Source: Candidatus Saccharibacteria bacterium CG10_big_fil_rev_8_21_14_0_10_47_8
GTDB lineage: Bacteria; Patescibacteriota; Saccharimonadia; Saccharimonadales; UBA10212
Length of the DNA stretch: 35,561 bases
NCBI GenBank assembly: GCA_002793885.1
Contig: PFEG01000041.1
Span: 1 to 35,561, forward strand
Direction of reading: 5' to 3'
Shown: one piece after another, positions 1,375 to 33,204 of the stretch
How positions within the stretch are numbered: position 1 is the first letter of the stretch
How the letters are laid out: every line of letters starts with the position of its first letter
Notes under the pieces: generated by a model
The model's input: the letters and a program-made list of their open reading frames with translations, nothing else
Databases searched by the model: none
What the model was told of the DNA's origin: nothing
Made by a program: the position numbers and the translations under genes

Positions 1375-1377
1375 GTC

Positions 1378-1893
1378 ATGACCAATGAAGTACTTGGTTT
1401 TAATATTTGGACCAAGAACATGCCGCAGCCATTTCTGGATAGTTTTGTGGAATTCGCCGATCGACAAGATTTACCAGTGGTAGCTATCGTTGACGATGTA
1501 TTACCTGCTGTAGTATTCAAACGATCAGAAGATGAATCATCAGAATACAGCCAAGCCTATGTTCACCATATGCAAAAAATAGGATTTGATCAAGTCCACC
1601 TGGTATCAGAACTACTAGTTGATAGGGACAAAGATCTTACTCGCTACTACGAAATTAGTAGCCGCATAGGCTTATCAGCATTTTTAGGACTATTGCCCGA
1701 AAAAAAGCGGCAAGCACTGGATGATCTTTTACTGACTGAGACAATCGACACCTGCTGGCAATTAAGTGTACTAGAATCGGGGATTATACAGGCTAGCGTT
1801 ACCAAGTATTTGACTGGCAAGCGCTCAACGGCACTTTTTAGGCTCGCTAAAAATACTATAGGTGGTTTTGATTTCGATGTTATCGATCAGTAA
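1378..1893 (+). CDS. Hypothetical protein, apparently co-transcribed with tyrS
   Basis: 171-aa ORF starting 4 nt after the tyrS stop. I recognise no family motif. Confidence 0.55.
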   Translation: MTNEVLGFNIWTKNMPQPFLDSFVEFADRQDLPVVAIVDDVLPAVVFKRSEDESSEYSQAYVHHMQKIGFDQVHLVSELLVDRDKDLTRYYEISSRIGLSAFLGLLPEKKRQALDDLLLTETIDTCWQLSVLESGIIQASVTKYLTGKRSTALFRLAKNTIGGFDFDVIDQ

Positions 1894-1897
1894 GTGA

Positions 1898-2677
1898 CTA
1901 TTCTTTTAACAAAGCTTTTGTAATTAAATGTTTACTGTGACCAATATCTTCGAAGGTACGCAGTTGTTGGGGGCTAAATAGAGCTGCAAATTGCTCCAGG
2001 AGTGGTCTACTAACCATCTTATCCTTATTACCGTAATAGATAGTGGTTTTCTCAGCAAAACCCTCACCAACCTCTACGAGTCCATCTGGGTGTTCGCCTT
2101 GAAAGTATTGGTACAACTCGTCCTTATTTTCCAGACGAATGACCTTTTCGTATCCACGTGCTAAAAATTGGGTAAATTGGGCATTATAGCTATAAAAATT
2201 ATCAATTACTGATGCATTTACGGTTGTAAGTTGAGTTTTATTAACAAGTCCTAATGGGGCAACAAACGATATTGAGTCAATGGTACTTGCTTCCAGCTTT
2301 GTGGTAGCACGTGCTAATGGATTAGCACCAAAACTATAGCTAAGCAAAGAAAGGGGTCCCGTAAACGATACTAGCTGTTTGTCTGTGAAGGCGTCTTTAA
2401 AACCCCCCGCACGAATTGCTTCTACGCAATCCACTATACTTTGCGAAGTTCCTTGCACGCTGAATGTCCCTGCACTCAGCCAGTAGCCATAGTAGTAGAG
2501 CACCATAAAGGCCTGGTTGCGCAAAGCTTCGGGTAAGCTTTTAAAGTAGGCTTTATCCGGATAGTTTGGTATACCAGGCACACAGACGGTTACACCATCA
2601 ACAGACCCCAGGTCTTGAGCCCAGTAATATAAATGCACACGCAGGCCATCTGGCGAAACAAGAAGTTGTTCGATCAT
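1898..2677 (-). CDS. Hypothetical protein, possibly alpha/beta-hydrolase fold
   Basis: 259-aa ORF. SYSFG resembles a nucleophile-elbow G/S-x-S-x-G. The functional assignment is weak. Confidence 0.45.
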   Translation of the reverse strand: MIEQLLVSPDGLRVHLYYWAQDLGSVDGVTVCVPGIPNYPDKAYFKSLPEALRNQAFMVLYYYGYWLSAGTFSVQGTSQSIVDCVEAIRAGGFKDAFTDKQLVSFTGPLSLLSYSFGANPLARATTKLEASTIDSISFVAPLGLVNKTQLTTVNASVIDNFYSYNAQFTQFLARGYEKVIRLENKDELYQYFQGEHPDGLVEVGEGFAEKTTIYYGNKDKMVSRPLLEQFAALFSPQQLRTFEDIGHSKHLITKALLKE

Positions 2678-2760
2678 TTAATAGATATCCTTGCAGTAAT
2701 TATTCAGGATGTGAATACTATACATTAGTATATGATGAATCATACTGTTTTGGTACGTTT

Positions 2761-3558
2761 ATGAAAAAAAGAATATTAGTTATAACAGACTGTAGCGACA
2801 TTGCCGCTAATGACCTTTACGCTACCTTAGTGACCAATCTTGATAATTTGAATACAAATAAGGTTGTTGTAGAGCCGATTGTTGTTGTATCTGAATTTTC
2901 GGTACTGCATGCAAGTTTCGTTGCTCGGCTACTAGCTGAAGCATACAACCCTGATTCTTTAACCATACTGGCGGTTGTGAACCCTCTTGATACATCCACT
3001 GCAAAAAGAGCTAGAATTGCAGGACGCTTAAAAAATGGCATTAAGATTGTTGGGGCGAACACCGGTGTCTTTACCTGGCTCATTAATGATTACGGGCTGG
3101 ATGAGGTGTGTGAGACAGATGCGACTGGTTTACAGGGAAAAGATTTTATTTCATTTGGTGGTAAGTATATTCACGCTCCAATAGCAGCCAAGTACGCCGT
3201 GACGGACGACATTAATAGTATAAAGATTGCTGATTTTACAGAAAACGACTTAATGAAGCTTGAATATATGCCCGGAATGGTACTTCATATTGATAATTTT
3301 GGTGTGGCTAAAATTTTCTTAAACGCTAATGATTTCTCGGCCAACAATGGAGATCATCTAACACTACGAAAAAATGGTAAAGAACTAGGCGAGCTCACAT
3401 ATTGTCACAGCATGAAAGAATTGCCTGACGGTGCGCTTGCACTCTATAAAGGTAGCTCACTTGGTTTGCTAGAAATTGGAACAGTACGAAAGCTTGGAAC
3501 GGCTAAAGAACTAGGTTTAACTATCGGTGACGTCGTTGAGATTATTCCTGATCACTGA
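2761..3558 (+). CDS. Divergent SAM hydroxide adenosyltransferase-like (DUF62 / SAM-hydrolase-halogenase family) protein
   Basis: From ATG 2761 (MKKRILVITDCSD...), the order of motifs parallels DUF62 proteins. ITDCSD matches TDFG, VNPLDTS matches IDPGVGT, FGGKYIHAPIAA matches FHGRDIFxPxAA, HIDNFGV matches IDxFGN, and the C-terminus reads GLLEIG...GD. Several catalytic-region positions are substituted. The upstream 2566-2760 extension overlaps the minus-strand gene and was discarded. Confidence 0.5.
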   Translation: MKKRILVITDCSDIAANDLYATLVTNLDNLNTNKVVVEPIVVVSEFSVLHASFVARLLAEAYNPDSLTILAVVNPLDTSTAKRARIAGRLKNGIKIVGANTGVFTWLINDYGLDEVCETDATGLQGKDFISFGGKYIHAPIAAKYAVTDDINSIKIADFTENDLMKLEYMPGMVLHIDNFGVAKIFLNANDFSANNGDHLTLRKNGKELGELTYCHSMKELPDGALALYKGSSLGLLEIGTVRKLGTAKELGLTIGDVVEIIPDH

Positions 3559-4120
3559 CCAAAAGCTGTATGGCCAGTTCGGTCTCGTCAGTATCTACGA
3601 CGTGAATAATATTTTTGATAGCAAGTTTTTCAAATTCATCACCACCAAGCTTCTTATCTGGGATAGAAAGTTTACCATACTGTTCACGCAGTAGATATTT
3701 GAAGGTTTCACACAAAGATTGGGCATTCTCTCCACGAATCACATAGACACCTGAAATGCTAGAAATCATATAAAGCAATTTTCGAGTTTTCCAGTCAGTA
3801 CCAAATAAAATATCGTTGTCATTAAATCGAAAAATATCATTATAAATAACTAAAACTGCGTCTCTGTTAAACTGGTATTTAGTTTGATAAGAAATTTCTA
3901 AGTTATTGTCATTCACAAACTTCGTTAAATGCTCGACGTGCTTGGAAGAATAATTTGGCTTAAGTATGATAATTGCATGCTCAAATCCAGCATATTTGCT
4001 TGGGTCTTTACGATAGTTAAATTGACTAGCTAGCAGTTTATCTTGCATGCAGCTATCATAACATGGTAAATCTCGCCTTTTGTGCTGATATAATAGTGTC
4101 GAGATTATATAGTACCTCAT
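3542..4120 (-). CDS. Nucleoside-diphosphate-kinase-like protein (highly divergent)
   Basis: AIIILKPN matches NDK IIKPD/N, SGVYVIRGENAQ matches GPVVxxVxEGENA, and NIIHVVDT matches NxxHGSDS with the His retained. The true start may be the internal Met at about 4048. The 3' end overlaps the convergent DUF62-like gene by 17 nt. Confidence 0.4.
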   Translation of the reverse strand: MRYYIISTLLYQHKRRDLPCYDSCMQDKLLASQFNYRKDPSKYAGFEHAIIILKPNYSSKHVEHLTKFVNDNNLEISYQTKYQFNRDAVLVIYNDIFRFNDNDILFGTDWKTRKLLYMISSISGVYVIRGENAQSLCETFKYLLREQYGKLSIPDKKLGGDEFEKLAIKNIIHVVDTDETELAIQLLVSDQE

Positions 4121-4184
4121 TAACTTCTTACAGAATGTTCCGGACCCATATGCTTAGCCAAGACGATTATCAAAGGAGACCTGT

Positions 4185-4895
4185 GTGTCCAAAGACCTAG
4201 TTATTAGAGACGATGTAGTTTCATACCGTGAAATGTGCGATATAGAAAATGTCCAAACTCTTCAAAGAGGGATGAATTATAGGTTAAATCCGAACTACTC
4301 AGTAGTTTTAATGTCGCAACGCTCAAATGCACCCTATACTGACCGGGTTCATGATGATGGTGTCACGGTTGAGTACGAAGGACATGATGTATCCAGGAAA
4401 GCTCATAACCACAATCCAAAATTTGAAGACCAAGCCGCTTTTTTACCTACTGGCAAGTTAACTCAAAACGGATTGTTCATTAAAGCCGTTGAGGATTATA
4501 AAAAAGGTATCTCAAAGCCTGAATTGGTCAAAATATATGAAAAAGTGTTGCCCGGAGTATGGTCACTAAAAGGTATCTTTGATCTCTTCGACTATAAGCA
4601 ATTATTTGATAATGGTCGGCATGTATATAGATTCATTTTGCGTTTATCCGATAATCAAAAAATAAACATTGAAACAAGTACTCAAAGTATTGAACATACA
4701 AGAATTATACCCAGTAAAGTTAAGCAAGAGGTATGGAAAAGAGATAATGGAGAGTGTGTATTATGTGGCTCACAAGAGAATTTACACTTTGATCATGAGC
4801 TACCATTCTCTAAGGGAGGTACGAGCTTAACTTCAAAAAATGTAAGACTATTATGTATGAAACATAATCTGGAAAAATCTGCCAAAATAGAATAA
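4185..4895 (+). CDS. SRA(YDG)-HNH nuclease, type IV (modification-dependent) restriction-like
   Basis: GTG start 6 nt after AAGGAG. The N-terminal half follows the SRA-like pattern (RGMNYR...SVVLMS...YTDRVHDDGVTVEYEGHD ... VWSLKGIFDLFDY...GRHVYRFILRL). The C-terminal HNH motif is CVLCGSQENLHFDHELPFSKGG...NVRLLCMKHN. Confidence 0.65.
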   Translation: MSKDLVIRDDVVSYREMCDIENVQTLQRGMNYRLNPNYSVVLMSQRSNAPYTDRVHDDGVTVEYEGHDVSRKAHNHNPKFEDQAAFLPTGKLTQNGLFIKAVEDYKKGISKPELVKIYEKVLPGVWSLKGIFDLFDYKQLFDNGRHVYRFILRLSDNQKINIETSTQSIEHTRIIPSKVKQEVWKRDNGECVLCGSQENLHFDHELPFSKGGTSLTSKNVRLLCMKHNLEKSAKIE

Positions 4896-5032
4896 ATCTT
4901 GACCAATACGCTCAGCCAGAGTGAAAAGGTGCAGGACTGATTCCACGTGCCCCTGCCATTATTGCCAGCGATCGTTTTTTGCCAAACATTAACTCTTTCC
5001 AGATAGCCAGACCAAGTGGTAGTATTTAATAG

Positions 5033-5692
5033 ATGAGTAAACTAGTTTTAAGCAAGCCAGTAGTTATATTTTTGTATGGTTTCCCGGGCTCCGGTAAAAG
5101 TTACGTGGCACGTAACTTATCGGAGTCAATTGAGATGGCCAATGTCAACGCCGATAGACTACGCAGCGAACTCTTTGAACACCCCCGTTACGACTCTCAA
5201 GAAAACGCCATAATCACCCACCTGATGAACTATATGACCGAAGAGTTCCTAAGCTCCGGTGTTAGTGTAGTTTATGATGCCAGCGCCGCCCGCCTGACTA
5301 CTCGGCGCAACCTACGCGAGCTTGCCAGAAGACATAAAGCCGAGCACCTACTGGTATGGCTGCAAATAGATGTCGAGAGTGCCTATGCCCGCACTCAAAA
5401 CAGAGACAGGCGAACATCGGACGATAAATACGCCGAGCCACAAAGCCGCCTGTCGTTTGATAAACAGATAGCCGGTATGCAGCACCCCAAAGGCGAAGAT
5501 TACCTGGTAATCAGCGGAAAACACTCTTTTGCGACTCAAAAAAGCGCCATCATAAATCGCCTTTATCAAGCAAGTTTGATCAATAGTGGAACCATGCAGA
5601 GTAACGTTGCTAAACCCGGGCTTGTAAACTTGGTGCCCAACCTACATGGTGGCCGGGTCGATATGACGCGGCGTAACATTACTATAGGCTGA
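5033..5692 (+). CDS. P-loop NTPase / AAA_33-type kinase-like protein
   Basis: Walker A GFPGSGKS near the N-terminus. Size and layout fit small-molecule or zeta-like kinases. Confidence 0.6.
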   Translation: MSKLVLSKPVVIFLYGFPGSGKSYVARNLSESIEMANVNADRLRSELFEHPRYDSQENAIITHLMNYMTEEFLSSGVSVVYDASAARLTTRRNLRELARRHKAEHLLVWLQIDVESAYARTQNRDRRTSDDKYAEPQSRLSFDKQIAGMQHPKGEDYLVISGKHSFATQKSAIINRLYQASLINSGTMQSNVAKPGLVNLVPNLHGGRVDMTRRNITIG

Positions 5693-5694
5693 GT

Positions 5695-6402
5695 ATGGCC
5701 CAGCGCATCGTCTTAATACCTGGCATCGGCGAGGTCACATTAGCTAAGCGGCGGGGCAGTTCGCATCTGCGCTTAAGCGTCACGGCTAACGGCCGCATAA
5801 GAGTTGGGCTTCCGCACTGGACGCCTTACGCTACCGGTATAGCCTTCGCCAAAAGTCGCCAGGAATGGATAACTGCTCAGCTGAATAAACATCCACAGGC
5901 CGTACTTATAAATGGTAGCCTGATTGGTAAAGCTCATAGGTTGCATTATATTGATACCAAGCAAACGGGTTCTAAAATTAAAACCAGAATCACTTCTACT
6001 ACCATAGAGATAAGGAGTTCTCTTGCCTATGACTCACCCAAAGTCCAGGAAAAAGCCCAGATAGCATCTGAACGGGCCCTAAAAGCTGAAACAATCAACT
6101 TACTTGTGCCTCGGCTGGCCAGCCTGGCCGCTCAGCACGATCTTGTTTACAACGATGTAAGAGTGCGTAAGTTAACTTCCAGGTGGGGCAGCTGCTCCAG
6201 TAATAAAACCATAACTCTTAGCTATTACTTGATACAGCTACCTTGGCCGTTGATTGATTACGTGTTGCTACATGAGCTGGCACACACTATCCACCTTCAT
6301 CACGGCGCTAATTTTTGGAACGGCCTGGAGCGTCTGCTACCTTCGGCCAAAAAAATCAGAAAAGAAATAAGACATCATAAACCGCGAATAGAACCAGCGT
6401 AA
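5695..6402 (+). CDS. YgjP-like (DUF45) zinc metallohydrolase
   Basis: WGSCSSNKTITLSYYLIQLP followed by HELAHTIHLHHGANFW (HExxH) is typical of the DUF45/SprT-like family. It starts 2 nt after the kinase-like gene. Confidence 0.75.
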   Translation: MAQRIVLIPGIGEVTLAKRRGSSHLRLSVTANGRIRVGLPHWTPYATGIAFAKSRQEWITAQLNKHPQAVLINGSLIGKAHRLHYIDTKQTGSKIKTRITSTTIEIRSSLAYDSPKVQEKAQIASERALKAETINLLVPRLASLAAQHDLVYNDVRVRKLTSRWGSCSSNKTITLSYYLIQLPWPLIDYVLLHELAHTIHLHHGANFWNGLERLLPSAKKIRKEIRHHKPRIEPA

Positions 6403-6423
6403 GCAGTTTGTGACATAATAAGA

Positions 6424-7578
6424 GTGACTATGAGCACTCTGCCCAAATTGGCCCAATCAACCGCCGATGAGTTAGACCATAACAGGCTACTGGCTTTAAT
6501 TAACAGTATGAGTGACGGGGTGCTGGCGTTGGACGACAAAGCCAAAATTATTTTAAGTAACAGTGTGGCCTTAAGCCTACTAGACTCCAATGCTATCAAC
6601 GGTAAACAGATTGGTCAAGTGTTGACGTTGGTTAACAACAGAGCCGGCGAACCCATAGATCTAGAAGACGTCATTTTTAACACCGAAACACCGATAGCCA
6701 ACCGCGATTGGCGCATAAACTATGCTGATGGCAGCAGTTTAAACTTATTCATCAGCATATCTCCGGTACACCGCGGTTTTGGCAGTGACGGCCAGAGTGG
6801 TTATGTGATTCTGATACGGGATATAACCCGAGAAAAATCTATCGAAGAAGAACGCGATGAATTTATCAGCGTCGCCTCACACGAGCTACGAACACCTATC
6901 GCAGTTGCTGAAGGTAGTATAAGCAACGCTTTGATGATGGCTCAAAAACAGGGGACTTCGAGCACAATTACGGAGACGTTAAACACTGCCCACCAACAGA
7001 TAGTTCTTTTGGGCAACATGATTAACGACCTATCAACCCTATCCAGAGCCGAGCGCGGCAGGCTCGGTATGGTTGTCGAAAACTTTAACGCTGACGAGTT
7101 GGTCTTATCTTTAGTGCACGACAATTTGCCCGTAGCCAAAACAAAAGGCCTGGAAATCATATACAAACCAGTAAGTCCTGCCGGCAGCCTGACCACCAGC
7201 CGCCTGTATGTCCGCGAAATATTGCAAAACTTTATAACCAACTCCCTAAAATACACCGAAAAGGGTCAAATAACTTTGCGGGCCAATAGCAAAGAAGACG
7301 GTATCGAATTTATAGTTAGCGACACTGGAATTGGCATCGCCAAAAGTGAGCAGGCCAAACTATTCACAAAATTTTTCAGAAGCAGTGATTGGCGCGTCAA
7401 AAACGTTAACGGAACAGGCTTAGGTCTATATGTCACTTCCAAACTGGCTAAACTCATTAATGCAAGATTGAATATGGATAGCGAGCTTAACAAAGGCAGC
7501 ACATTTAGCCTCTACGTACCCAATATTAAACAAACGCAGAAGCAGAAGCAACCTATCTCAGCCACTCAAGTTGCATAA
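6424..7578 (+). CDS. Soluble PAS-domain sensor histidine kinase (orphan)
   Basis: H-box SHELRTPI, N box NSLKYT, and G boxes DTGIGI and GTGLGL. There is no TM segment and no response regulator adjacent. The start is GTG 6424 or ATG 6430. Confidence 0.85.
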   Translation: MTMSTLPKLAQSTADELDHNRLLALINSMSDGVLALDDKAKIILSNSVALSLLDSNAINGKQIGQVLTLVNNRAGEPIDLEDVIFNTETPIANRDWRINYADGSSLNLFISISPVHRGFGSDGQSGYVILIRDITREKSIEEERDEFISVASHELRTPIAVAEGSISNALMMAQKQGTSSTITETLNTAHQQIVLLGNMINDLSTLSRAERGRLGMVVENFNADELVLSLVHDNLPVAKTKGLEIIYKPVSPAGSLTTSRLYVREILQNFITNSLKYTEKGQITLRANSKEDGIEFIVSDTGIGIAKSEQAKLFTKFFRSSDWRVKNVNGTGLGLYVTSKLAKLINARLNMDSELNKGSTFSLYVPNIKQTQKQKQPISATQVA

Positions 7579-7611
7579 ATTACTCTAATCAGGTAGTATT
7601 GACATTGACAG

Positions 7612-7637
7612 CTTACTTTAACAAGTAAGTTTTTTTA
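7612..7637 (+). terminator. Intrinsic terminator-like hairpin after the histidine kinase
   Basis: CTTACTT (7612-7618) pairs with AAGTAAG (7623-7629) around a 4-nt loop, followed by a T-run from 7630. Confidence 0.5.
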
Positions 7638-7655
7638 TTTTCTAGGGAGATTTAA

Positions 7656-8066
7656 ATGGCCGATTCGTCCAGGCCGAACCGAAAACCGCGTGTCCGCAAG
7701 ACCGCGCCGACGGTTCGGGAAAAAGCTCAGGCCGCGCAGTCTAAGGTAGGGTCCGCCAAGCCGAAAAAATTTCGGCGTCTTGCAAGGGCTACAACCAAGC
7801 CGTTTCGAGTCGTTAAAATCCCCAGTAACCCGGTAACCAGATTTCTGGGTAGAATCGGGAGAATCATCGGTAAGGTATTGGGCTGGCTGGTACCTCGCTA
7901 CTTTGTCAATTCTTGGCGTGAGGTCCGGCTTGTTACTTGGCCCGGCAGAAAAGAAACCTGGCGCCTAACGCTGGCTGTTGTTATCTTCGCTATCGTGTTT
8001 GGAGCTATGGTGGCTGGTGTGGATAAGGTAATCGATATACTGTTTCGTAAATTAGTACTTAAATAA
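7656..8066 (+). CDS. secE: Preprotein translocase subunit SecE with long basic N-terminal extension
   Basis: The C-terminal segment WREVRLVTWPGRKETWRLTLAVVIFAIVFGAMV is a typical SecE TM region. The gene lies immediately upstream of nusG, which is conserved synteny. Confidence 0.8.
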   Translation: MADSSRPNRKPRVRKTAPTVREKAQAAQSKVGSAKPKKFRRLARATTKPFRVVKIPSNPVTRFLGRIGRIIGKVLGWLVPRYFVNSWREVRLVTWPGRKETWRLTLAVVIFAIVFGAMVAGVDKVIDILFRKLVLK

Positions 8067-8083
8067 GGATAAGTTAAACTCAA

Positions 8084-8626
8084 ATGACTAAACGTTATGA
8101 TTCCAGCCGACAATGGTACGCCATTCATACCTACAGTGGCTATGAAGAAAAAGTGGCTGAAAGTATTCGCCAGCGTGCCGAGTCTTTGGATATGGGAGAC
8201 AAGATCTTTCAAGTCCTTGTGCCAAAAGAAAAAATGATAGAGATCAAAAATGGTAAGCGTAGGGTTGTAGAAAAGCGTATCTTTCAAGGTTACGTTCTGG
8301 TGGAGATGAAGTTGTACGAGGACGCCTGGTATATTGTGCGCAATACTCCAAACGTGACCGGTTTTGTGGGTACCGGCACAGAGCCAACTCCTGTTGAAGC
8401 TGACGAAATCGCCAAGATACTAAAACGTATGGGCCGCGATGAGCCAAAGCACAAGTTTGACTACCGAGTCGGAGAAGTTGTCAACATAGTTGACGGCCCG
8501 TTCAAGGGCTTTGACGGAGCTATCAACGAAATAGACGCCCAAAAGGGCAAACTAAAAGTTCTTGTAAACATGTTTGGCCGTGAAACGCCGGTTGAGCTTG
8601 ACGGTCTACAGGTAAAGAGAGTTTAG
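8084..8626 (+). CDS. nusG: Transcription termination/antitermination factor NusG
   Basis: WYAIHTYSGYEEKV NGN start and a C-terminal KOW (GEVVNIVDGPFKGFDGAINEID), within secE-nusG-rplK synteny. Confidence 0.9.
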   Translation: MTKRYDSSRQWYAIHTYSGYEEKVAESIRQRAESLDMGDKIFQVLVPKEKMIEIKNGKRRVVEKRIFQGYVLVEMKLYEDAWYIVRNTPNVTGFVGTGTEPTPVEADEIAKILKRMGRDEPKHKFDYRVGEVVNIVDGPFKGFDGAINEIDAQKGKLKVLVNMFGRETPVELDGLQVKRV

Positions 8627-8640
8627 TTATGGCTGCATCA

Positions 8641-8762
8641 CTCCATTGCACATTGCATATTGCACATTTATCATTGATTGATCATTTTACATTTACCAGG
8701 TTCGAAAAGGGCCAAGTGGCAAATGCCAAATCATCAAAAATTGTAAACTGTAAATTGATAAC
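8641..8762. repeat. AT-rich reiterated-word intergenic element A (nusG-rplK spacer)
   Basis: CATTGCA/TATTGCA heptads in tandem at 8644-8664, TGGCAAATGCCA near-palindrome, AAATTGTAAA at 8738-8747 and TGTAAATT at 8749-8756. It shares these words with element B at 20015-20150. Confidence 0.4.
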
Positions 8763-8786
8763 TAAGCAGACGAAAGGAGGCGTATA

Positions 8787-9215
8787 GTGGCTAAAGAAGT
8801 TAAGGCAAGTTTAAAACTAAAAATTAGAGGCGGGCAGGCCAGTGCCGCGCCGCCGGTTGGCTCAACGCTGGGCCAGTATGGCGTTAACATGATGGATTTT
8901 ATTAACCCGTTTAACGAAGAAACCAAAGACCGTATGGGCCAGAATCTAACGGTTCACGTATCTATTTATGAGGACCGAACCATGAGCTGGCGAGTTGTTG
9001 GGACGCCTACCGACGAGTTGATTCTATCGGCACTTAAAGTAGATAAAGGGTCCGGTGAACCAAACAAGATAAAGCTAGATAAAAAGCTAAGTGACGCTCA
9101 GTTAACTGAGATTGCTGAGGCCAAAGCCGGCGATATGAATACAGAAGATATTGATGCGGTTAAGAAAATGGTTGTCGGCACAGCTCGCAGTATGGGCATA
9201 GAAATCGAGAGCTAA
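8787..9215 (+). CDS. rplK: 50S ribosomal protein L11
   Basis: GTG start after AAAGGAGG. KLKIRGGQASAAPPVGSTLGQYGVNMMDF is a canonical L11 N-terminal domain. Confidence 0.95.
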   Translation: MAKEVKASLKLKIRGGQASAAPPVGSTLGQYGVNMMDFINPFNEETKDRMGQNLTVHVSIYEDRTMSWRVVGTPTDELILSALKVDKGSGEPNKIKLDKKLSDAQLTEIAEAKAGDMNTEDIDAVKKMVVGTARSMGIEIES

Positions 9216-9227
9216 AGAGTTTTTAGG

Positions 9228-9506
9228 ATGGCAGATTCAACAGAACGCACAATAGGAAACCTTGGTAGTGAGCAAAGAATACGCTCAATACAGAGTGGGG
9301 AAGAACTCCAAGGCCGACCACTAGGGGAAATAGTCGAGTACGCTGGTAACGTTTTGCATTTTGCTCTTGAGGGTCGCTCTTCTGAGGAAATTGCAACGGT
9401 AGGACACAGAATCATTGAGGTACTCAGGCACATGATAGCTGAGCAGGAGCCAGTAGAGCAAAAGTCAGTTGAGCAGTTATCATCCCATGCCGACGACGTG
9501 TATTAA
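9228..9506 (+). CDS. Small acidic hypothetical protein inserted between rplK and rplA
   Basis: 92-aa ORF filling most of the 355-nt rplK-rplA spacer. It has a weak, tightly spaced SD (AGGATG) and no recognised family. Coding status is uncertain. Confidence 0.4.
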   Translation: MADSTERTIGNLGSEQRIRSIQSGEELQGRPLGEIVEYAGNVLHFALEGRSSEEIATVGHRIIEVLRHMIAEQEPVEQKSVEQLSSHADDVY

Positions 9507-9570
9507 ATATAACTAAATTAAGTATGTGGGAGAGCTTTAAAAGCTCGCTAACACCACGGAAGGATACGAA

Positions 9571-10578
9571 ATGACCAAGAAAGAAGAACAGATCACAGAA
9601 ACCGAAATAAAAGAAACAAAGCAAGCAAGTGTCAAAGCCGTTTCAAAAAAGCTTGCAGTTAAAAAGCTAAAGACCGACAAGGTTGTCGAAATACAGGCCA
9701 CCGAAGAGATTGTTGAGCAAACCGATGCGAAAGACACCGATAAACCATCGGAGCCTTTGGCAAAATCGGGTAAGCGAAGCGCCCAGGCTCTCGAAGAAGC
9801 CCAAGAGAAAAAAGCTAAAGAAACTCGCAAAGCCAAAAAAACAACAACTGAAAGTCAAGAAGCTAAAAAGTCCACAAAAAAGCCAACCCGCTCAAAGTTG
9901 GAACGGGCTGGTAAAAAATTCAGAGAAGCCGCCAAGCTGGTTGATAAGTCAAAAACTTACACCTTGGTTGAAGCCTTAGAATTAGCTACAAAGACCAGCC
10001 CAACAAAATTTGACGCGACTGTTGAGCTGCACATTAACTTAAATGTTGACCCCAAGCAGGCTGATCAAAATATCCGCGGTGTAGTGGCCCTGCCGGCTGG
10101 AACTGGTAAGCCTGTCCGCGTAGCGGTTCTGGCCGATGCGGACGACGCAGGTAAGGCTCAAAAGGCCGGGGCAGATATTGTCGGCAGCGATGAGCTGTTT
10201 CAACAGTTAGACAAAGAGAACATAAACTTTGATGTGCTAATAGCTACCCCCGCGTTAATGCAGCGATTGAGTAAATACGCCCGTTTGCTTGGGCCGCGCG
10301 GACTGATGCCCAATCCTAAAAGCGGAACAGTAACTGCCGATGTAGCAAAAGCCGTAGCCGAAGCCAAAGCCGGCCGGGTAGAATACCGGGTGGACAGCAA
10401 CGGCATAATCCACCTGGGTATTGGAAAGGTAGGCTTTGGGGCGAGTAAACTTACGCAAAACGCCGAGGCTGTAATAGCTAGCATACGGGCTGCTAAGCCG
10501 GCCGGTTTAAAGAGTACCTACATTAAGTCTCTGTACATCTCAAGCACCATGGGCCCTAGTATCAATACACAGCCCTAA
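9571..10578 (+). CDS. rplA: 50S ribosomal protein L1 with ~110-aa Lys/Glu-rich N-terminal extension
   Basis: From about residue 113, [26 protein letters not shown] matches the canonical L1 N-terminus. The first ~110 residues are low-complexity K/E/T-rich. A good SD (GGAAGGA) precedes ATG 9571. Confidence 0.9.
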
Positions 10579-28478: not shown

Positions 28479-28591
28479 GCCTACAAGTATAAACGCTCAA
28501 TTACTATTACTATGTATATAAAATAGCTTGTGACTCCTCGCAAGCAACCACAAGCTATCAGCCAGCATAATATCAAATCGTTTACATTAAG

Positions 28592-28610
28592 TTAAGTGTT
28601 TGCTTAAATA
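28592..28610 (+). promoter_or_regulatory. Operator 1: TTAAGTGTTTGCTTAAATA (palindrome TTAAG-N6-CTTAA) within the dsbA-like promoter
   Basis: Identical 19-mer to 29882-29900. It lies between a -35-like TTTACA (28581-28586) and overlaps a -10-like TAAATA (28605-28610). ATG at 28618 follows 7 nt later, suggesting a leaderless transcript. Confidence 0.55.
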
Positions 28611-28617
28611 TGTAAAC

Positions 28618-29307
28618 ATGAAACTTCTTCTTAGCTCTATTGCTGCGATTTTAATAGTTAGTATAGGGCTTTTTATATTTTGGCCGAGCGAAGCACCATC
28701 AACCGCCCAAAATAATACTACTTCTCCAGCTGTTGCCGCTCCCGAAACGCCCTCAGCCCAAACCACCGAACTTATTATCGGAGACCCGAATGCCAAGGCT
28801 ACCATTATTGAGTATGCTGATTACAAATGTCCGTCCTGCGGTGAATTTCATCAAAAAGCTGGCAAGCAACTACGTGCTAATTACGTTGATAAAGGGCTCT
28901 TGAAAATAGTATTCAGGCCTTTCCCTGTGTATGCCGTAGATGGTGCCCAGGCGCTGGTTGGATCGTATTGTGCGAAAGACCAGCAACAATTTACCGAGTA
29001 CCACGATGTTTTGTTCGAATATATGTGGGTGAACCACTTCCGGCAGGGAGATTATCAAAAAGCTATTGATACCGTGCTGACAGAAAGTGTTATGAACGAT
29101 CTAATGAAAAATATAGGCATGGACCCGAAAGTCTATAAAGAATGTATGGATAGTAAGAAACACGATAAAGCCTATTACGATACTATTGATCTAGCCGCAC
29201 CCGATGAAATTCAAGGTACGCCAAGCTTTATCATTAACGGGCAAAAGATCGTTGGCCCGCAGCCGTATAGCGTATTTAAAACACTGGTGGATATTCAACT
29301 ACAATGA
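28618..29307 (+). CDS. Membrane-anchored/secreted DsbA-family thiol:disulfide oxidoreductase (CPSC)
   Basis: N-terminal hydrophobic anchor (LLLSSIAAILIVSIGLFIFW), IIEYADYKCPSCGEFH active site and GTPSFIINGQ cis-Pro region. ATG 28618 is preferred over the TTG at 28600, which lies inside the operator. Confidence 0.8.
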   Translation: MKLLLSSIAAILIVSIGLFIFWPSEAPSTAQNNTTSPAVAAPETPSAQTTELIIGDPNAKATIIEYADYKCPSCGEFHQKAGKQLRANYVDKGLLKIVFRPFPVYAVDGAQALVGSYCAKDQQQFTEYHDVLFEYMWVNHFRQGDYQKAIDTVLTESVMNDLMKNIGMDPKVYKECMDSKKHDKAYYDTIDLAAPDEIQGTPSFIINGQKIVGPQPYSVFKTLVDIQLQ

Positions 29308-29879
29308 GCTGGCCAAAACTGTGGTTATTAAAGCTGAAAATTAGCCTGAGGTCTGCCCTCAAAGTGTTTCGGCGACCAGCATATATTGTACTAGCCCTAT
29401 TAACTACCCTTGTCGCTAGTGGTTCGATTCTCTGGTCGCTCAATCTTGATCTACTGCGCTATATAATCTTCGAGGCACCTATAAGTGCCCTCGCCAAAGT
29501 CGATTTTTTCTTTGATATATATAAAGGTGTCTATACTGACTTCAGCAGCGCCCAAAGTACTCTGGTAGTGATTTTTTCAGTTTTATTTGGTATAAACCTA
29601 GCCTTGCTGGTTTTCGTACTGAAGCACCGAGGCTTCAAAGCTATCCCAAAGAAAAGTGGTGCGGGCGGATTTGCTTTAGCAATAATCGGTGGAGGCTGTA
29701 TTGCCTGCGGAACATCCTTAATTGCTCCGCTGCTTGCTACTTTCGGCGCTTCTGCCACGCCACTTATCCGAGACCTGGCAACTGTATTCACCTTTATTGG
29801 CAGCCTACTCATCATATATTCCATATACAAACTAGGTGCTGTGTGTTCGTATATATTTACTTCGCAGGACTTGACTTAA
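29304..29879 (+). CDS. Four-TM membrane protein with intramembrane GGGCIACG (CxxC) motif, translationally coupled to the DsbA-like gene
   Basis: ATGA overlap with the dsbA-like stop. There are four hydrophobic segments. Basic residues in the N-terminus and the TM2-TM3 loop predict that both face the cytoplasm. CIAC sits mid-TM3. I recognise no family assignment. Confidence 0.7.
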   Translation: MSWPKLWLLKLKISLRSALKVFRRPAYIVLALLTTLVASGSILWSLNLDLLRYIIFEAPISALAKVDFFFDIYKGVYTDFSSAQSTLVVIFSVLFGINLALLVFVLKHRGFKAIPKKSGAGGFALAIIGGGCIACGTSLIAPLLATFGASATPLIRDLATVFTFIGSLLIIYSIYKLGAVCSYIFTSQDLT

Positions 29880-29906: not shown

Positions 29907-30206
29907 ATGAAATTACTTAAAAACCGTCCGGTAAAGCTAAATAATCGCGAAGAGCGTCTAGTTAGCGCAATGCAATTACTTGGCGATCAAACCCGCTTTA
30001 AGATCTTCAAACTCTTGCTGTCGGGAAGAGAGATGTGCGTTACTGAGATCGCCGATGCAATCGGTATTTCTGTCCCAGCTGTTTCTCAGCATTTCCGTAT
30101 TTTCGAACTGGTTGGTTTGGTTGAAAAGCAGCGGTATGGACAGAAAATCTGCTATTTACTGAAAACTGAGGACCAGTTTGTTAAAGAATTAATCCGCATA
30201 GTTTAA
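29907..30206 (+). CDS. ArsR/SmtB-family winged-helix transcriptional repressor (two cysteines)
   Basis: LLGDQTRFKIFKLLLSGREMCVTEIADAIGISVPAVSQHFRIFELVGLV is a canonical ArsR HTH core. The only Cys residues are in EMCV and KICY. Confidence 0.85.
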   Translation: MKLLKNRPVKLNNREERLVSAMQLLGDQTRFKIFKLLLSGREMCVTEIADAIGISVPAVSQHFRIFELVGLVEKQRYGQKICYLLKTEDQFVKELIRIV

Positions 30207-30226: not shown

Positions 30227-30478
30227 ATGTCTAAGATAACAATTTATAGTACTGCGACTTGCGCCTATTGCAAGATGCTTAAAGGCTATCTGCAAAGCAA
30301 AGATATTGCCTACGAGGAAAAGCACGTTGACCAGGACCAGTCTCTGGCAATGGAAATGTATGAAAAAAGCGGGCAGATGGGTGTGCCATTCACTGTCATA
30401 GAGAAAGAGGACGGCAGCGAAGAAAAGATCCTCGGCTTTGACAGGCAAAGGGTTGATAGCGTATTAGGACTCGCCTAA
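30227..30478 (+). CDS. Glutaredoxin/NrdH-like small redoxin (CAYC)
   Basis: ITIYSTATCAYCKMLKGYL and the GVPFTVI cis-Pro motif. 83 aa, preceded by a strong SD (AAGGAGG). Confidence 0.8.
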   Translation: MSKITIYSTATCAYCKMLKGYLQSKDIAYEEKHVDQDQSLAMEMYEKSGQMGVPFTVIEKEDGSEEKILGFDRQRVDSVLGLA

Positions 30479-30483
30479 AGCCT

Positions 30484-30780
30484 ATGAAAGCGCTCTGGAA
30501 GAATAAAACGATTGCCGAGAGTGACGACACCATAACGATAGAAGGTAATATTTACTTCCCGCCGCATTCGGTAAATCACAACTTCTTAGAGAAAAGCGGG
30601 TTTCACACACTCTGCTATTGGAAGGGTTTGGCCAGCTATTACCATGTCAGCGACAACAAGAACCGCGATAAAAATATTGCCTGGTATTACCCTCGTCCGA
30701 CCTGGCTGTCGAAGAAAATAATGGGGAAAGACTTTTCTAACTATGTAGCCTTTGACGGACGGATGAAAGTAACCTCATGA
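30484..30780 (+). CDS. DUF427 domain protein (paralog 1)
   Basis: IAESDD...IEGNIYFPP...CYWKGLASYY...AWYYPRP...YVAF is the characteristic DUF427 motif order. Confidence 0.75.
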   Translation: MKALWKNKTIAESDDTITIEGNIYFPPHSVNHNFLEKSGFHTLCYWKGLASYYHVSDNKNRDKNIAWYYPRPTWLSKKIMGKDFSNYVAFDGRMKVTS

Positions 30781-30790
30781 GGAGTATACA

Positions 30791-31255
30791 GTGAAGAGAC
30801 GGACTATTTTCCTTATCCTAATAGTGATCTTTATTGCTTTAGGCACAGCGCTGCTGGCTGTGGCGAATATTGATGATAAGCAGAATACACAAGACGTAAA
30901 AGTAATAAACGAGGCCGCGTCAAATAATGGCGCCGTCGGTTCTTCTGCCGCTTATAGAGCTTATTCACCAGAAGCAGTTGCCTCAGCCTCGGCGCAGGAT
31001 AAGATAGTACTCTTCTTCCATGCCAGCTGGTGCCCTACCTGCCATGTACTTGATAAGGACATTACAGACAACTCAGATAAGATCCCAGCTAATGTACGCA
31101 TCCTGAAAGCAGACTTTGACAACGAAACCGAACTTAAAAAGAAGTATGGAGTCAGGCTCCAGCATACCCTTGTCCAAGTCGATAAAAATGGCCAAAAGAT
31201 TGCTTTATGGAGCCAGAGCCCAAGCTTATCTGATGTATTAAACGAGTTGCAGTAA
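30791..31255 (+). CDS. Membrane-anchored extracytoplasmic thioredoxin-like protein (WCPTC)
   Basis: GTG start after GGAG, an N-terminal TM anchor (IFLILIVIFIALGTALLAV), and the LFFHASWCPTCH thioredoxin active site. Confidence 0.8.
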   Translation: MKRRTIFLILIVIFIALGTALLAVANIDDKQNTQDVKVINEAASNNGAVGSSAAYRAYSPEAVASASAQDKIVLFFHASWCPTCHVLDKDITDNSDKIPANVRILKADFDNETELKKKYGVRLQHTLVQVDKNGQKIALWSQSPSLSDVLNELQ

Positions 31256-31256
31256 C

Positions 31257-32888
31257 ATGGAACTAGTTATCCTTTCATTGCTGGCTGGCGTGTTGACGGT
31301 CCTGTCGCCGTGCGTACTGCCTTTGCTGCCTGTTGTATTGGCAGGTTCGGCGGCTGAAAAGAGTAAACGCGCGCCACTCATAATTATTGGCAGCCTCGCT
31401 ATATCAGTTATAGCCTTTACGCTGCTCATTAGAGGTAGCACATTGTTGCTTGGCGTGCCGAGTAGCGTATGGTTGATTGTGTCTGGAGCGCTGGTAACTT
31501 TCATCGGTATCACGCTGGTATTTCCGGCAGTATGGGAGTGGATGACCATAAAATTACATTTGCAGGATGAAGCCGGGCGCCTAACAGCGATATCCAGTAA
31601 AAGAGCTGGCAATACCCGTAATGTTTTACTTGGGCTCTCGCTTGGCCCGGTCTTTACAAGTTGTAGCCCAACCTACGGCTTGATACTGGCAACTGTGCTC
31701 CCGACAAGTTTTGCGGTCGGTACGATCAATCTTATAGCTTACAGCCTTGGCTTAAGCGCAGTTTTATTAGCTGTAGCTTACGGTGGGCAGCGTGTCACAA
31801 AACGTCTCGGATGGGCCATAGACCCGATGAGCAAGTTCAGGCGTGGGCTAGGTATATTTATTGTAATAGTTGGTTTACTTATTATGACTGGACTAATTAA
31901 AGACGCTGAGACTTGGCTGGTAGACCGCGGCCTGCTCGGCACTACTAAATTTGAACAGCGGCTACTTGACTCCGACAGCGATACCAAAAATAAAGCCAGT
32001 AAAGATGTACCGGATTTCTTGCTTAAGTCTTTTCCTAAAACAGACTGGTCAAAAGCAGATCCGACGATCAGCAAAGCCTTGAGTGGTGGCCCAGGTAAAG
32101 ACGGCATTCCCGCCATAGATGAACCCAAATTCGAACCAATTGGTAATTTCAAGCATTCGGATAGCGTACAAGCGATCGTTATTGAGGATAAAGACACGGT
32201 CAGAGTCTACCCGTATAACATTCTAACTTGGCATGAAATCGTCAACGATACAGTAAATGGCAAACCTCTCGCTATCACTTTCTGCCCACTATGCGGCAGC
32301 GCCATTGTTTACAATCGAACTCTGCCAGATGGTGTCAGCACCTTTGGCGTCAGCGGAGCATTGATTGAGAGCAATATGGTGATGTTTGACCGCGGCAGCG
32401 AAACACTCTGGCAACAAAGTACTGGTCAGGCGCTGGCCGGAAGGCACTTTGGCCAAAAACTTGAACTAGTTAAATTTCAACTGCTTACTGTGGGTGAAAT
32501 AAAGTCAAAATATTCAAATGCCCAGATTATGAGCGAGAACACCGGTCACAGCCGGGATTATGCACGAAATCCATATTCTGGTTACGAAGACAGTGACGAT
32601 TTCTTCTTCAGCCCGAGCGATACTGACAAGCGCTATCCGTCTAAATCTATATTTGTAGTATTTGATGTAGATGGCACTTCGGTAGCTGTTCCCTGGCTAG
32701 AACTAAAGAACGAGCAAGTCTACGATACACAAGTTAATGGGCAAACCATAAAGCTCAGCAAGAGCGATAACGAACTGACAATTACTAAGTCCGACGGGGC
32801 AGAAATACCGTTTTATTTTGAAATGTGGTTCTCGTGGGCTGTTCAGTATCAGGACAAGGGAGTCGTGTTTGATCCAACTAAACAATAA
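31257..32888 (+). CDS. CcdA/DsbD-type transmembrane thiol-electron transporter fused to a C-terminal DUF3179 domain
   Basis: TM1 reads LSPCVLPLLP and TM4 reads FTSCSPTYG (the two CcdA cysteines). After about residue 270, GKDGIPAIDEPKF and FCPLCGSAIVY are typical of DUF3179. It starts 1 nt after the thioredoxin-like gene. Confidence 0.8.
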   Translation: MELVILSLLAGVLTVLSPCVLPLLPVVLAGSAAEKSKRAPLIIIGSLAISVIAFTLLIRGSTLLLGVPSSVWLIVSGALVTFIGITLVFPAVWEWMTIKLHLQDEAGRLTAISSKRAGNTRNVLLGLSLGPVFTSCSPTYGLILATVLPTSFAVGTINLIAYSLGLSAVLLAVAYGGQRVTKRLGWAIDPMSKFRRGLGIFIVIVGLLIMTGLIKDAETWLVDRGLLGTTKFEQRLLDSDSDTKNKASKDVPDFLLKSFPKTDWSKADPTISKALSGGPGKDGIPAIDEPKFEPIGNFKHSDSVQAIVIEDKDTVRVYPYNILTWHEIVNDTVNGKPLAITFCPLCGSAIVYNRTLPDGVSTFGVSGALIESNMVMFDRGSETLWQQSTGQALAGRHFGQKLELVKFQLLTVGEIKSKYSNAQIMSENTGHSRDYARNPYSGYEDSDDFFFSPSDTDKRYPSKSIFVVFDVDGTSVAVPWLELKNEQVYDTQVNGQTIKLSKSDNELTITKSDGAEIPFYFEMWFSWAVQYQDKGVVFDPTKQ

Positions 32889-32901: not shown

Positions 32902-33204
32902 ATGCAAGCAATTTGGAATAACAAAGTAATCGCCGAGGCAGACAAAAAAGACCTGATATATATTGAAGGTAACTGGTACTTTCCACCCGACGCAATTAAA
33001 AAAGAATTCCTCAAGCCTACGGATAAACACACCACCTGCTTCTGGAAGGGTCTGGCCAGCTATTACCAAGTCGACGTAGATGGCGAAGTTAATGAAGACG
33101 GAGCCTGGTACTACCCCGATCCTACGCCCAGTGCTATTGATAAAGTTAAGAAAGATTTCACGGATTATGTTGCCTTTTGGCACGGCGTGGAAGTTAAAGA
33201 GTAG
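32902..33204 (+). CDS. DUF427 domain protein (paralog 2)
   Basis: IAEADK...IEGNWYFPP...CFWKGLASYY...AWYYPDP...YVAF. About half of the positions are identical to paralog 1 by hand alignment. Confidence 0.75.
   Translation: MQAIWNNKVIAEADKKDLIYIEGNWYFPPDAIKKEFLKPTDKHTTCFWKGLASYYQVDVDGEVNEDGAWYYPDPTPSAIDKVKKDFTDYVAFWHGVEVKE

Follow-up and report, generated by a model that had tools for sequence, protein, structure and literature searches.

Contig PFEG01000041.1 of Candidatus Saccharibacteria bacterium CG10_big_fil_rev_8_21_14_0_10_47_8, a stretch of 35,561 nucleotides (nt) that was analyzed at its full length and is called the window below, carries a gene island in which a DsbA-like oxidoreductase is encoded directly before a small membrane protein of 191 amino acids (aa) (Table 1). 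The two open reading frames (ORFs) overlap, the ATG of the second lying within an ATGA (29304-29307) that also holds the TGA of the first. A preliminary description of this DNA had pointed out the overlapping 191-aa ORF, its four hydrophobic helices and a CxxC in the Gly-rich middle of the third helix, and had proposed an analogue of DsbB or VKOR that is coupled to DsbA; the first three observations are borne out here, and the proposal is weighed in the following sections. We use TM4 as the name of the 191-aa protein and its family, and TM1 to TM3 for the first three of its transmembrane (TM) helices. In the databases, the protein of the window, taken from the list of ORFs, has a 100% identical counterpart, P0001, which is annotated as a "hypothetical protein" of a Candidatus Saccharibacteria metagenome-assembled genome. 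It contains three cysteines, C132 and C135 (CIAC, inside IIGGGCIACGTS) and C182; the last of these is the additional C-terminal cysteine noted earlier, which is present but not conserved in the relatives. The upstream protein was recognized by the Pfam models Thioredoxin_4 (1.1e-27) and DSBA (2.7e-13) and has, besides its CPSC site, a second conserved Cys pair (C118/C176 in the numbering of the DsbA alignment). Its start is likely the ATG at 28618 and not the TTG at 28600. Functional statements made below are drawn from genomic evidence throughout.

Table 1. Genes, protein segments and candidate regulatory sites of the island, in positions of the window (AF2, AlphaFold2; pLDDT, predicted local distance difference test)
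Feature	Positions	Strand	Basis
16-nt palindrome TTAAGTGTTTGCTTAA (TTAAG-N6-CTTAA), candidate ArsR operator	28592..28607	+	11 nt before the dsbA-like ATG
Membrane-anchored DsbA/BdbD/MdbA-like oxidoreductase, CPSC site, Thr-cisPro loop	28618..29307	+	Pfam, PDB relatives
TM4 gene: four-TM, N-in/C-in membrane protein, founding-type member of the CxxC family	29304..29879	+	ORF, family search, AF2, hydropathy
N-terminal amphipathic, K/R-periodic cytoplasmic helix of TM4 (residues 3-21)	29310..29366	+	AF2 pLDDT 92-98
TM3 (residues 119-147), Gly-rich discontinuous helix, G129-x-G131-C132-x-x-C135-G136-T-S...P142	29658..29744	+	AF2, alignment
Invariant CxxC codons (C132-I-A-C135), presumed redox or ligand site	29697..29708	+	sole invariant columns in 142 sequences
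Second, identical copy of TTAAGTGTTTGCTTAA	29882..29897	+	10 nt before the arsR ATG
ArsR/SmtB-family regulator, two conserved cysteines (MCV[TS]EIA, GQKICY)	29907..30206	+	HTH_5 2.5e-14, NF033788 4.4e-20
Signal-less cytoplasmic glutaredoxin-like protein, C-A-Y-C, YruB/NrdH-like	30227..30478	+	Pfam Glutaredoxin 7e-14
DUF427 protein, member of the arsR-grx operon	30484..30780	+	PF04248 4.9e-23
Membrane-anchored thioredoxin-like protein (TrxTM), WCPTC	30791..31255	+	Thioredoxin 6.6e-10
CcdA (DsbD_TM)-DUF3179 fusion, canonical reductant conduit of the island	31257..32888	+	DUF3179 2.4e-74
Second DUF427 protein	32902..33204	+	PF04248 2.3e-26
Fused Zwf-Gnd (glucose-6-phosphate dehydrogenase and 6-phosphogluconate dehydrogenase), 778 aa	33214..35550	+	zwf 450.6 and gnd_rel 321.3 bits, above cut-off

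A four-helix protein with an invariant CxxC

The AF2 model of TM4, obtained with a deep alignment, reached a pLDDT of 88.7 and a predicted template modeling score (pTM) of 0.82. It consists of the N-terminal helix (residues 3-21), TM1 (25-46), two helices in the loop that follows (48-57 and 62-79), TM2 (82-109), a TM3 that runs from 120 to 135, ends at the CxxC, is broken at 136-139 (G136-T-S-L) and continues at 140-146, and a fourth TM helix that starts at 152 (152-178+); the hydropathy and charge profile of the family supports the same four-helix arrangement. In that profile, lysines and arginines cluster in the N-terminal helix, in the loop at 107-118 and in the C-terminal tail, so that both termini are placed in the cytoplasm (N-in/C-in) and the long loop at 47-85 outside. 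No charged residue occurs at 119-155, a stretch of 37 residues, in any of 142 sequences, which puts the CxxC near the middle of TM3, where C132 and C135 lie at a glycine-lined break of the helix. There are no cysteines in the loops, and both conserved cysteines are found on a single turn of TM3. Judged from sequence and model, the CxxC would be located near the center of the bilayer, opposite the conserved G96 and N98 of TM2.

Relatives were collected with a word-indexed search (67 relatives) and with an exhaustive HMMER search, which returned 536 cluster representatives at E < 1e-3, nearly all of them 180-200 aa long, and 135 at E < 1e-10. The CxxC was found in 210 of the 213 relatives that were fetched, whose commonest number of cysteines is two, and when 142 diverse members were aligned, no column other than those of C132 and C135 proved invariant (the protein of the window is the first row of both family alignments); the motif is thus kept among homologues, a point on which the preliminary description had wanted its proposal to be checked. 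More than 90% of the 142 sequences share N47, G96, G131 (96%) and G136 (99%), the position of K65 is K or R in 96%, and about 80% conservation is reached by Y27, W44, G129, P142, and S173, while the fraction of K/R is 0.4-0.6 at alternating positions of the N-terminal helix. We define the family by a length of approximately 180-200 aa, an N-terminal amphipathic helix, four TM helices, the conserved N47/K65/G96, and the TM3 signature G-x-G-C-x-x-C-G-(T/S)-(S/x)...P, and every one of these features is found in the window's protein.

The family spans Saccharibacteria, Parcubacteria, Chloroflexota, and Actinomycetota. Clustering resulted in four main groups, namely a Saccharibacteria type (115), a Parcubacteria type that covers Kaiser-, Azam- and Spechtbacteria (60), a third group (27), and subfamily b (8), and named members are known also from Dehalococcoidia, Limnocylindrales, and Actinomycetota. 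The second cysteine of the motif is lost in the relatives P0130 (CIAG) and P0073 (CIAR); these may be sequencing errors or natural single-cysteine variants, which might then trap mixed disulfides.

Pairing with DsbA and comparison with known membrane partners

The recycling of exported thiol-disulfide enzymes depends on a membrane protein. Only four families of such recyclers have, to our knowledge, been established or put forward, of which DsbB, VKOR, and (recently) MauE serve oxidation and DsbD/CcdA serves reduction. The TM4 system appears to be of this known kind, an exported thioredoxin-fold enzyme with a membrane cysteine protein that recycles it, while TM4 itself is common in the Candidate Phyla Radiation (CPR) and unrelated to the known recycler families.

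The coupling to DsbA, first claimed for the window, was seen again across several phyla. A DsbA-like gene directly adjoins TM4 in 28 of 32 independent TM4-seeded loci, and stop and start of the pair mostly overlap by 4 nt. The contexts of the pair are otherwise unrelated, e.g., it stands between rpoC and rpsL in locus L003, in a prophage-like region of a Dehalococcoidia genome in L008, in Actinomycetota in L009, and on a mobile element of Parcubacteria in L115-117. Pairs also duplicate together, with two DsbA-TM4 pairs in L010, and the order DsbA-TM4-DsbA was found in L015 and L037. All 30 partner DsbAs that were compared keep the CPxC, the Thr-cisPro loop, and the second cysteine pair, and the nearest solved relatives of the partner are BdbD (5e-13), Corynebacterium diphtheriae DsbA/MdbA, and Staphylococcus aureus DsbA, with ScsC reached only at 1e-4. 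In the reverse test, metagenomes were scanned with the DsbA alignment alone, and the gene immediately 3' of DsbA in the resulting 80 loci was classified by local hidden Markov models that were checked against Pfam. This gene encoded TM4 in 27 loci, VKOR in 16, DsbB/BdbC in 4, and CcdA in 2, hence TM4 fills the slot in which DsbA-fold proteins have their known membrane redox partners. A rough tree of the DsbAs shows the TM4-linked ones at no fewer than four places, interleaved with those linked to VKOR, DsbB, and CcdA. TM4 is tied to DsbA as tightly as VKOR and DsbB are, and it is very probably a dedicated membrane redox partner of the upstream DsbA-like protein, with which it would exchange a disulfide through its intramembrane CxxC. 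The analogy with DsbB and VKOR that had been drawn from the single locus thus stands for the operon slot beside related DsbAs, while a role as re-oxidant is not established by it. MdbA-like proteins were previously found to be enriched in CPR bacteria, where they are thought to fold pilins, and VKOR is only their third most frequent neighbor, the first two not being named (Meheust et al. 2019).

The presence of a canonical DsbB or VKOR elsewhere had been listed in the preliminary description as a point that would speak against its proposal. A VKOR was found beside the pair in one locus only, L044, which is also the only one of 65 TM4 loci with a VKOR. There, DsbA (2875-3579), TM4 (3576-4139), and VKOR (4136-4732) follow each other with successive 4-nt overlaps on a contig of 766 kb, and the VKOR is canonical (loop cysteines, CIYC, Pfam 2e-34).

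Searches for known relatives of TM4 were negative at every level. No Pfam or NCBIfam model matches the protein of the window, and only noise was obtained for its 142 relatives (e.g., DUF7560 in 10 members, best E 0.021). This includes PF02600 (DsbB/BdbC), with no match for the window protein nor for the 142 relatives at E <= 1, PF07884 (VKOR), PF07291 (MauE/DoxX), and PF03203/PF02411 (MerC/MerT), each without a match in the window protein or the 142 relatives, as well as PF02683/PF13386 (CcdA/DsbD_TM), which did not match TM4. As a control, the same scan detected real DsbB in L075 and L077, and VKOR at 1e-22 to 2e-34 in L044 and L073 among others. With hhalign, the probability was 0.15% for Escherichia coli DsbB (sequence verified against PDB), 0.2% for the CcdA domain encoded in the window itself, and 22% for Tn21 MerC (verified against annotated merC), the latter over the 23 columns of the motif only. 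When PDB sequences were compared with the family profile, no VKOR or DsbB chain was recovered and the only match, which was non-significant (E = 0.46), was the GMTCAAC loop of a copper-ATPase metal-binding domain. Foldseek against PDB gave unrelated proteins as best hits (E = 0.35, TM-score 0.33) and recovered no VKOR, DsbB or CcdA chain, and neither of two AF2 models had a match at E < 0.3 or with a TM-score > 0.36. The N- and C-terminal halves of TM4 were also compared with each other, and no internal duplication was found. Full-text literature searches returned no description of the family.

By none of these comparisons does TM4 belong to DsbB, VKOR, MauE, CcdA/DsbD, or MerC/MerT, and the profile searches did not place it in a transporter or other non-redox family. 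The earlier impression that it fits neither DsbB nor VKOR is thereby substantiated by profiles, by the lack of loop cysteines, and by the Foldseek search with a structural model that had been suggested as a check. TM4 is a new, previously undescribed family with a recognizable job, non-homologous to the known partners.

VKOR (PF07884) and DsbB/BdbC (PF02600) are, like TM4, small four-helix membrane proteins with a redox CxxC and a long, helix-containing first outer loop, and are encoded immediately 3' of a DsbA/MdbA/BdbD-like gene, often overlapping it. However, DsbB has two pairs of cysteines in its outer loops and VKOR has a loop cysteine pair together with a conserved Ser/Thr, whereas TM4 has a single pair, inside TM3, and none in its loops. 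The CxxC is found at the outer end of TM2 in DsbB and of the fourth helix in VKOR, in contrast to the glycine-flanked position in the middle of TM3 in the present family. Both known proteins depend on quinone, while no quinone site was identified in TM4, and their loci are without the cytoplasmic redoxin neighbors that TM4 loci have. MauE (PF07291) likewise has four TM helices, and one short Cys motif makes up its sole active site; this motif is CXC followed by Phe-Gly, with a conserved Lys and Glu, as opposed to the GxGCxxCG(T/S) of TM4. It was proposed as a third DsbB-like oxidant that fills gaps in species without DsbB/VKOR; approximately 20% of the bacterial species surveyed lack all three oxidants, and according to the same work more pathways are to be found (bioRxiv 10.64898/2026.03.05.709764). 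There is thus a precedent for unconventional partner arrangements in fermentative bacteria.

Direction of electron transfer

We narrowly favor, with a probability of roughly 40%, a reductive relay in which electrons would flow outward, from the cytoplasm to the DsbA-like protein. NADPH from Zwf-Gnd would feed a glutathione reductase (GR)-like flavoprotein reductase, which would reduce the cytoplasmic glutaredoxin-like protein (Grx); this would pass the electrons to the intramembrane CxxC of TM4, and TM4 to the DsbA-like protein outside, which would act as an ScsC-like reductase or isomerase. The TM4 system would be a quinone-independent functional analogue of CcdA/ScsB and not an oxidant of the DsbB/VKOR type, and dsbA-TM4 would be induced together with the other members of an ArsR-controlled thiol or metal (copper) stress regulon. 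ScsB/ScsC are a precedent for a reduced DsbA-fold protein in copper stress, and the cysteines of CcdA are located mid-membrane at helix irregularities, while the CxxC of DsbB/VKOR is at the surface. Electron flow in the opposite direction, from DsbA through TM4 to the cytoplasmic Grx, was considered and rejected as thermodynamically uphill.

Regulation is the first line of evidence that points to a reductive role. The palindrome TTAAGTGTTTGCTTAA precedes both the dsbA-like gene and arsR in the window. Its first copy lies between a -35-like TTTACA (28581-28586) and a -10-like TTAAAT, and the -35-like TTGACT of the second copy (29871-29876) is found inside the end of the TM4 gene; these hexamers were identified by eye, the promoter scan having called none of them. 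With up to three mismatches, the palindrome occurs just upstream of dsbA and/or arsR in approximately 35 Saccharibacteria loci, compared with a chance expectation of about 4 (the window, L001, L005, L013, L018-L026, L035-L037, L042, L046-L055, and L060), at 10-25 nt before the start codons and also where no arsR adjoins. The two-cysteine ArsR-family repressor probably uses it as its operator, and it would define a small thiol or metal stress regulon, in which ArsR likely represses both the dsbA-TM4 and the arsR-grx operons. The arsR gene stands beside the pair in 16 of 57 non-redundant TM4 loci, and both cysteines of the regulator are kept in 14 of 14 full-length orthologues (a 15th aligned one ends after the first Cys). 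As the operator is shared by dsbA-TM4 and arsR-grx-DUF427, the pair is part of a regulon that otherwise consists of reductant-supplying genes.

The second line of evidence comes from neighboring redoxins. Cytoplasmic Grx/Trx/Rdx genes were found within 2.5 kb of 18 out of 57 non-redundant TM4 genes vs. none of 20 VKOR/DsbB genes (Fisher p = 0.004, not corrected for kinship). The Grx gene adjoins in 15 of the 57 TM4 loci and comes after TM4 also in loci that lack DsbA (L007) or CcdA, and other redoxins are part of tight operons, such as Fur/PerR-like-Trx-DsbA-TM4 in L010 and Rdx-DsbA-TM4 in L009. In one natural fusion (P0109, MEO6761159.1, present in two assemblies; L034, 4001-4825), the Grx of the island, here with CGFC, precedes a subfamily-b TM4, to whose cytoplasmic N-terminus it is tied by approximately 7 linker residues. 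No DsbA adjoins this gene, and a CsoR/RicR-like repressor, a SHOCT protein, and a heavy-metal P-type ATPase are encoded downstream of it. Subfamily b as a whole, to which also a second copy in L001 (8901-9455), P0067 (L004), and P0130 belong, among others, is not found beside DsbA; its neighbors are cytoplasmic redox proteins, i.e., the GR-like reductase, a 111-aa CEEC protein, DUF427, or the fused Grx. These contexts support a link of the TM4 fold to the cytoplasmic thiol system and show that DsbA is not its only possible outer partner.

Metal resistance is the third. In the Kaiserbacteria-like loci L115-117 (approximately 1090-9700), the pair is part of a copper-resistance island on a mobile element, in the order CsoR, P-type ATPase, a 131-aa ORF, rhodanese-DUF1573, DUF1573, DsbA, TM4, multicopper oxidase, serine recombinase, and DNA methylase. 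A cupredoxin/multicopper-oxidase-like protein was found in L009 and a CueR/CadR/MerR-type regulator in L008, and copper or metal contexts around the pair or the TM4 gene were seen altogether in three phyla beyond Saccharibacteria. In L115, the genes for the ATPase, DsbA, and the oxidase are fragmented, which suggests a decaying copy or a poor assembly.

The resemblance to CcdA/DsbD thiol relays, which the preliminary description had drawn from the glycine-flanked cysteines, thus gains from the redoxin neighbors, the Grx fusion, the operator, and the copper islands, but does not extend to homology (0.2% in hhalign). CcdA/DsbD/ScsB proteins (PF02683) share with TM4 the buried mid-membrane cysteines and an extracytoplasmic thioredoxin-fold partner (of DsbA fold in ScsC), and CcdA fills the slot of TM4 in 2 DsbA loci; they also have a cytoplasmic redoxin donor and links to copper or oxidative stress, two features in which the likeness of TM4 comes from gene context. 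In contrast to the four helices and one CxxC of TM4, they are built of 6 to 8 helices in two pseudo-symmetric halves with one Cys each, and a genuine CcdA coexists with TM4 in the island of the window. Tentatively, and with somewhat less confidence than in the outward direction as such, TM4 could be regarded as a structurally new, quinone-independent relay in which a single mid-membrane CxxC connects Grx to a surface DsbA-fold protein, and as a second, non-homologous solution to a task for which DsbD/CcdA/ScsB are so far the only known one, which would be widespread in CPR and mobilized on copper-resistance islands.

A number of observations weigh against an outward relay. Among the known partners found in the slot, oxidants outnumber CcdA 20 to 2, and the partner DsbA is closer to the oxidases BdbD, MdbA, and SaDsbA (~1e-12) than to ScsC (1e-4). 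The island of the window already encodes a canonical reductive pair, TrxTM-CcdA, which the Grx could serve, or the Grx could be merely a co-regulated stress protein. A 2+2 repeat or pseudo-symmetry, which gives CcdA/DsbD their two-sided access, was not found in TM4, we know of no relay whose two cysteines share a single turn of a helix, and the CxxC was assigned its depth from its position in the sequence and from the AF2 secondary structure only. The neighbor statistics are dominated by one clade, the Saccharibacteria, and the Grx-TM4 fusion is a single case among approximately 300 relatives, with no further fusion among the 47 relatives returned by a profile search with subfamily b. Moreover, the DsbA-TM4-VKOR operon of L044 is awkward for both redox models, as two such partners acting on one DsbA imply a futile cycle unless they balance it in the manner of a protein disulfide isomerase.

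It is possible, if somewhat less so than the relay, although the gap is within the uncertainty, that TM4 is an analogue of DsbB, VKOR, or MauE, whose CxxC would re-oxidize the DsbA-like protein and deliver the electrons to a membrane acceptor, e.g., a scavenged quinone, bound among the four helices and under the two extracytoplasmic loop helices. Beside homologous DsbAs, TM4 takes the overlapping 3' position that is held by VKOR in 16 loci and by DsbB in 4, the partners are mutually exclusive in 64 of 65 TM4 loci, and the architecture is DsbB/VKOR-like in its four helices, its long first outer loop that holds two helices, and the conserved polar N47, K65, and N98; yet the CxxC is in the middle of the membrane and not at its outer surface, shuttle cysteines are absent, and there is neither homology nor a fold match to quinone-dependent oxidases. 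The DsbA, most like BdbD, MdbA, and SaDsbA, has a CPxC and its own structural disulfide, many pairs are found in housekeeping contexts without stress genes (L002, L003, and L012), and reduction is already covered by the separate TrxTM-CcdA pair, all of which would suit an oxidant. On the other hand, redoxins are enriched beside TM4, in one case even fused to it, and absent beside VKOR/DsbB, dsbA-TM4 is co-regulated with reductant-supplying genes, and the pair occurs on copper islands. No quinone or other acceptor was evident. CPR genomes do carry VKOR despite having no quinone synthesis (Meheust et al. 2019). In addition, one Cys motif can be enough, as in MauE, more pathways are to be expected, and species with several classes of oxidants are common (bioRxiv 10.64898/2026.03.05.709764), which would make L044 tolerable, even if a VKOR in the same operon remains a point against a second oxidant.

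Less probable by far is a carrier of thiophilic metals (Cu(I), Hg(II), or As(III)) similar to MerC/MerT, in which the metal would be caught on the outside by the CPxC of DsbA, move to the CxxC of TM4 by ligand exchange and go on to the cytoplasmic Grx or a reductase, or take the reverse way for export. The GxxCxxC-type motif in a membrane helix resembles the GCAAC in TM1 of the likewise four-helical MerC (local likeness GCAAC..P.L..FGA, hhalign 22%, 23 columns), and the sole match among PDB sequences was the GMTCxxC loop of the metal-binding (HMA) domain of a copper ATPase (E = 0.46), but neither motif match is significant and no member of the 142 has a Pfam match to MerC/MerT. A mid-membrane pair of cysteines at a helix break with conserved Asn and Ser also resembles the CPC site of copper ATPases; however, the motif is on TM3 in TM4 and on TM1 in MerC, and a second, cytoplasmic cysteine pair as in MerT, MerC, and MerF is missing (modal count 2). 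Adjoining genes for ArsR, a CueR/MerR-type regulator, CsoR, P-type ATPases, and multicopper oxidase, as well as the GR/MerA-like reductase beside the TM4 paralogue in L001, would be in line with metal transport, which is also compatible with L044. Nevertheless, metal genes are lacking from most loci, the ArsR carries one alpha-3 Cys instead of the CVC arsenite site, and GR/MerA-like reductases adjoin TM4 in a few loci only, with glutathione reductase as their best-scoring assignment. TM4 is almost always partnered with a DsbA that is homologous to those linked to VKOR and DsbB, not with MerP or an HMA protein, and no mer operon (MerP, MerA, MerR) was found with TM4.

Even more improbable, TM4 could be a non-catalytic anchor, assembly factor, or client of DsbA with a structural or regulatory CxxC, for which the lack of a cofactor site or catalytic precedent for the fold, the translational coupling expected of a stoichiometric complex, and the complete DsbA-VKOR system besides TM4 in L044 could be cited, but the invariance of the two cysteines and their flanking glycines across four phyla is typical of an active site, DsbA has its own membrane anchor, and subfamily b is found beside cytoplasmic redox proteins without a DsbA neighbor.

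An oxidant would represent a further, independently evolved way to oxidize DsbA, while the favored outward relay would show a second and minimal way for reducing power to cross a membrane. Both outcomes would fill a gap in the envelope redox biology of organisms without respiratory quinones and would explain the presence of TM4 on mobile copper-resistance islands.

Other genes of the island and related loci

The arsR operon continues into a GR-like flavoprotein, into TrxTM-CcdA, or, in the window, into Zwf-Gnd. The glutaredoxin-like protein of the window also scored against TIGR02196 (4e-20, below the cut-off). TrxTM is likely the extracytoplasmic partner of the CcdA encoded next to it, whose DsbD_TM domain was recognized just under the cut-off (8.7e-06), and the pair recurs in L001, L020, L025, and L026. 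The fusion of CcdA with DUF3179, a large extracytoplasmic domain, is found also in L001, while the two are separate genes in L020 and apparently in L025 and L026. These arrangements suggest for DUF3179 a role as client or effector in the reductive pathway of CcdA. DUF427 follows Grx in 12 of 57 TM4 loci, often in tandem, and this points to an unrecognized role of DUF427 in thiol or redox metabolism.

Zwf-Gnd, which closes the redox island, generates reduced nicotinamide cofactor (presumably NADPH) and takes the position in the island that is held by the GR-like flavoprotein disulfide reductase in L001, L015/16, L017, and L042. This reductase, of GR/MerA/Lpd type, is encoded from 9469 onward in L001, directly after the subfamily-b TM4 (8901-9455), and ends the arsR-grx-DUF427-DUF427 operon in L015/16 (8530-9873), L017 (4478-5830), and L042 (4256 onward).

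Two further arrangements of DsbA-like genes were observed. In L010, the second TM4-DsbA pair (1760-3444, minus strand) has the reversed order, with TM4 first; a DsrE-like sulfur-relay protein is encoded ahead of it, and the pair runs divergently from the Fur/PerR-like-Trx-DsbA-TM4 operon, whose TM4 (P0221) is recorded on 259 contigs. Proteins of 470-570 aa that consist of two tandem DsbA-like domains, each with a CxxC, are encoded in L090, L092, L093, L096, L100, L103, L105-L107, and L112, with no membrane partner gene detected beside any of them.

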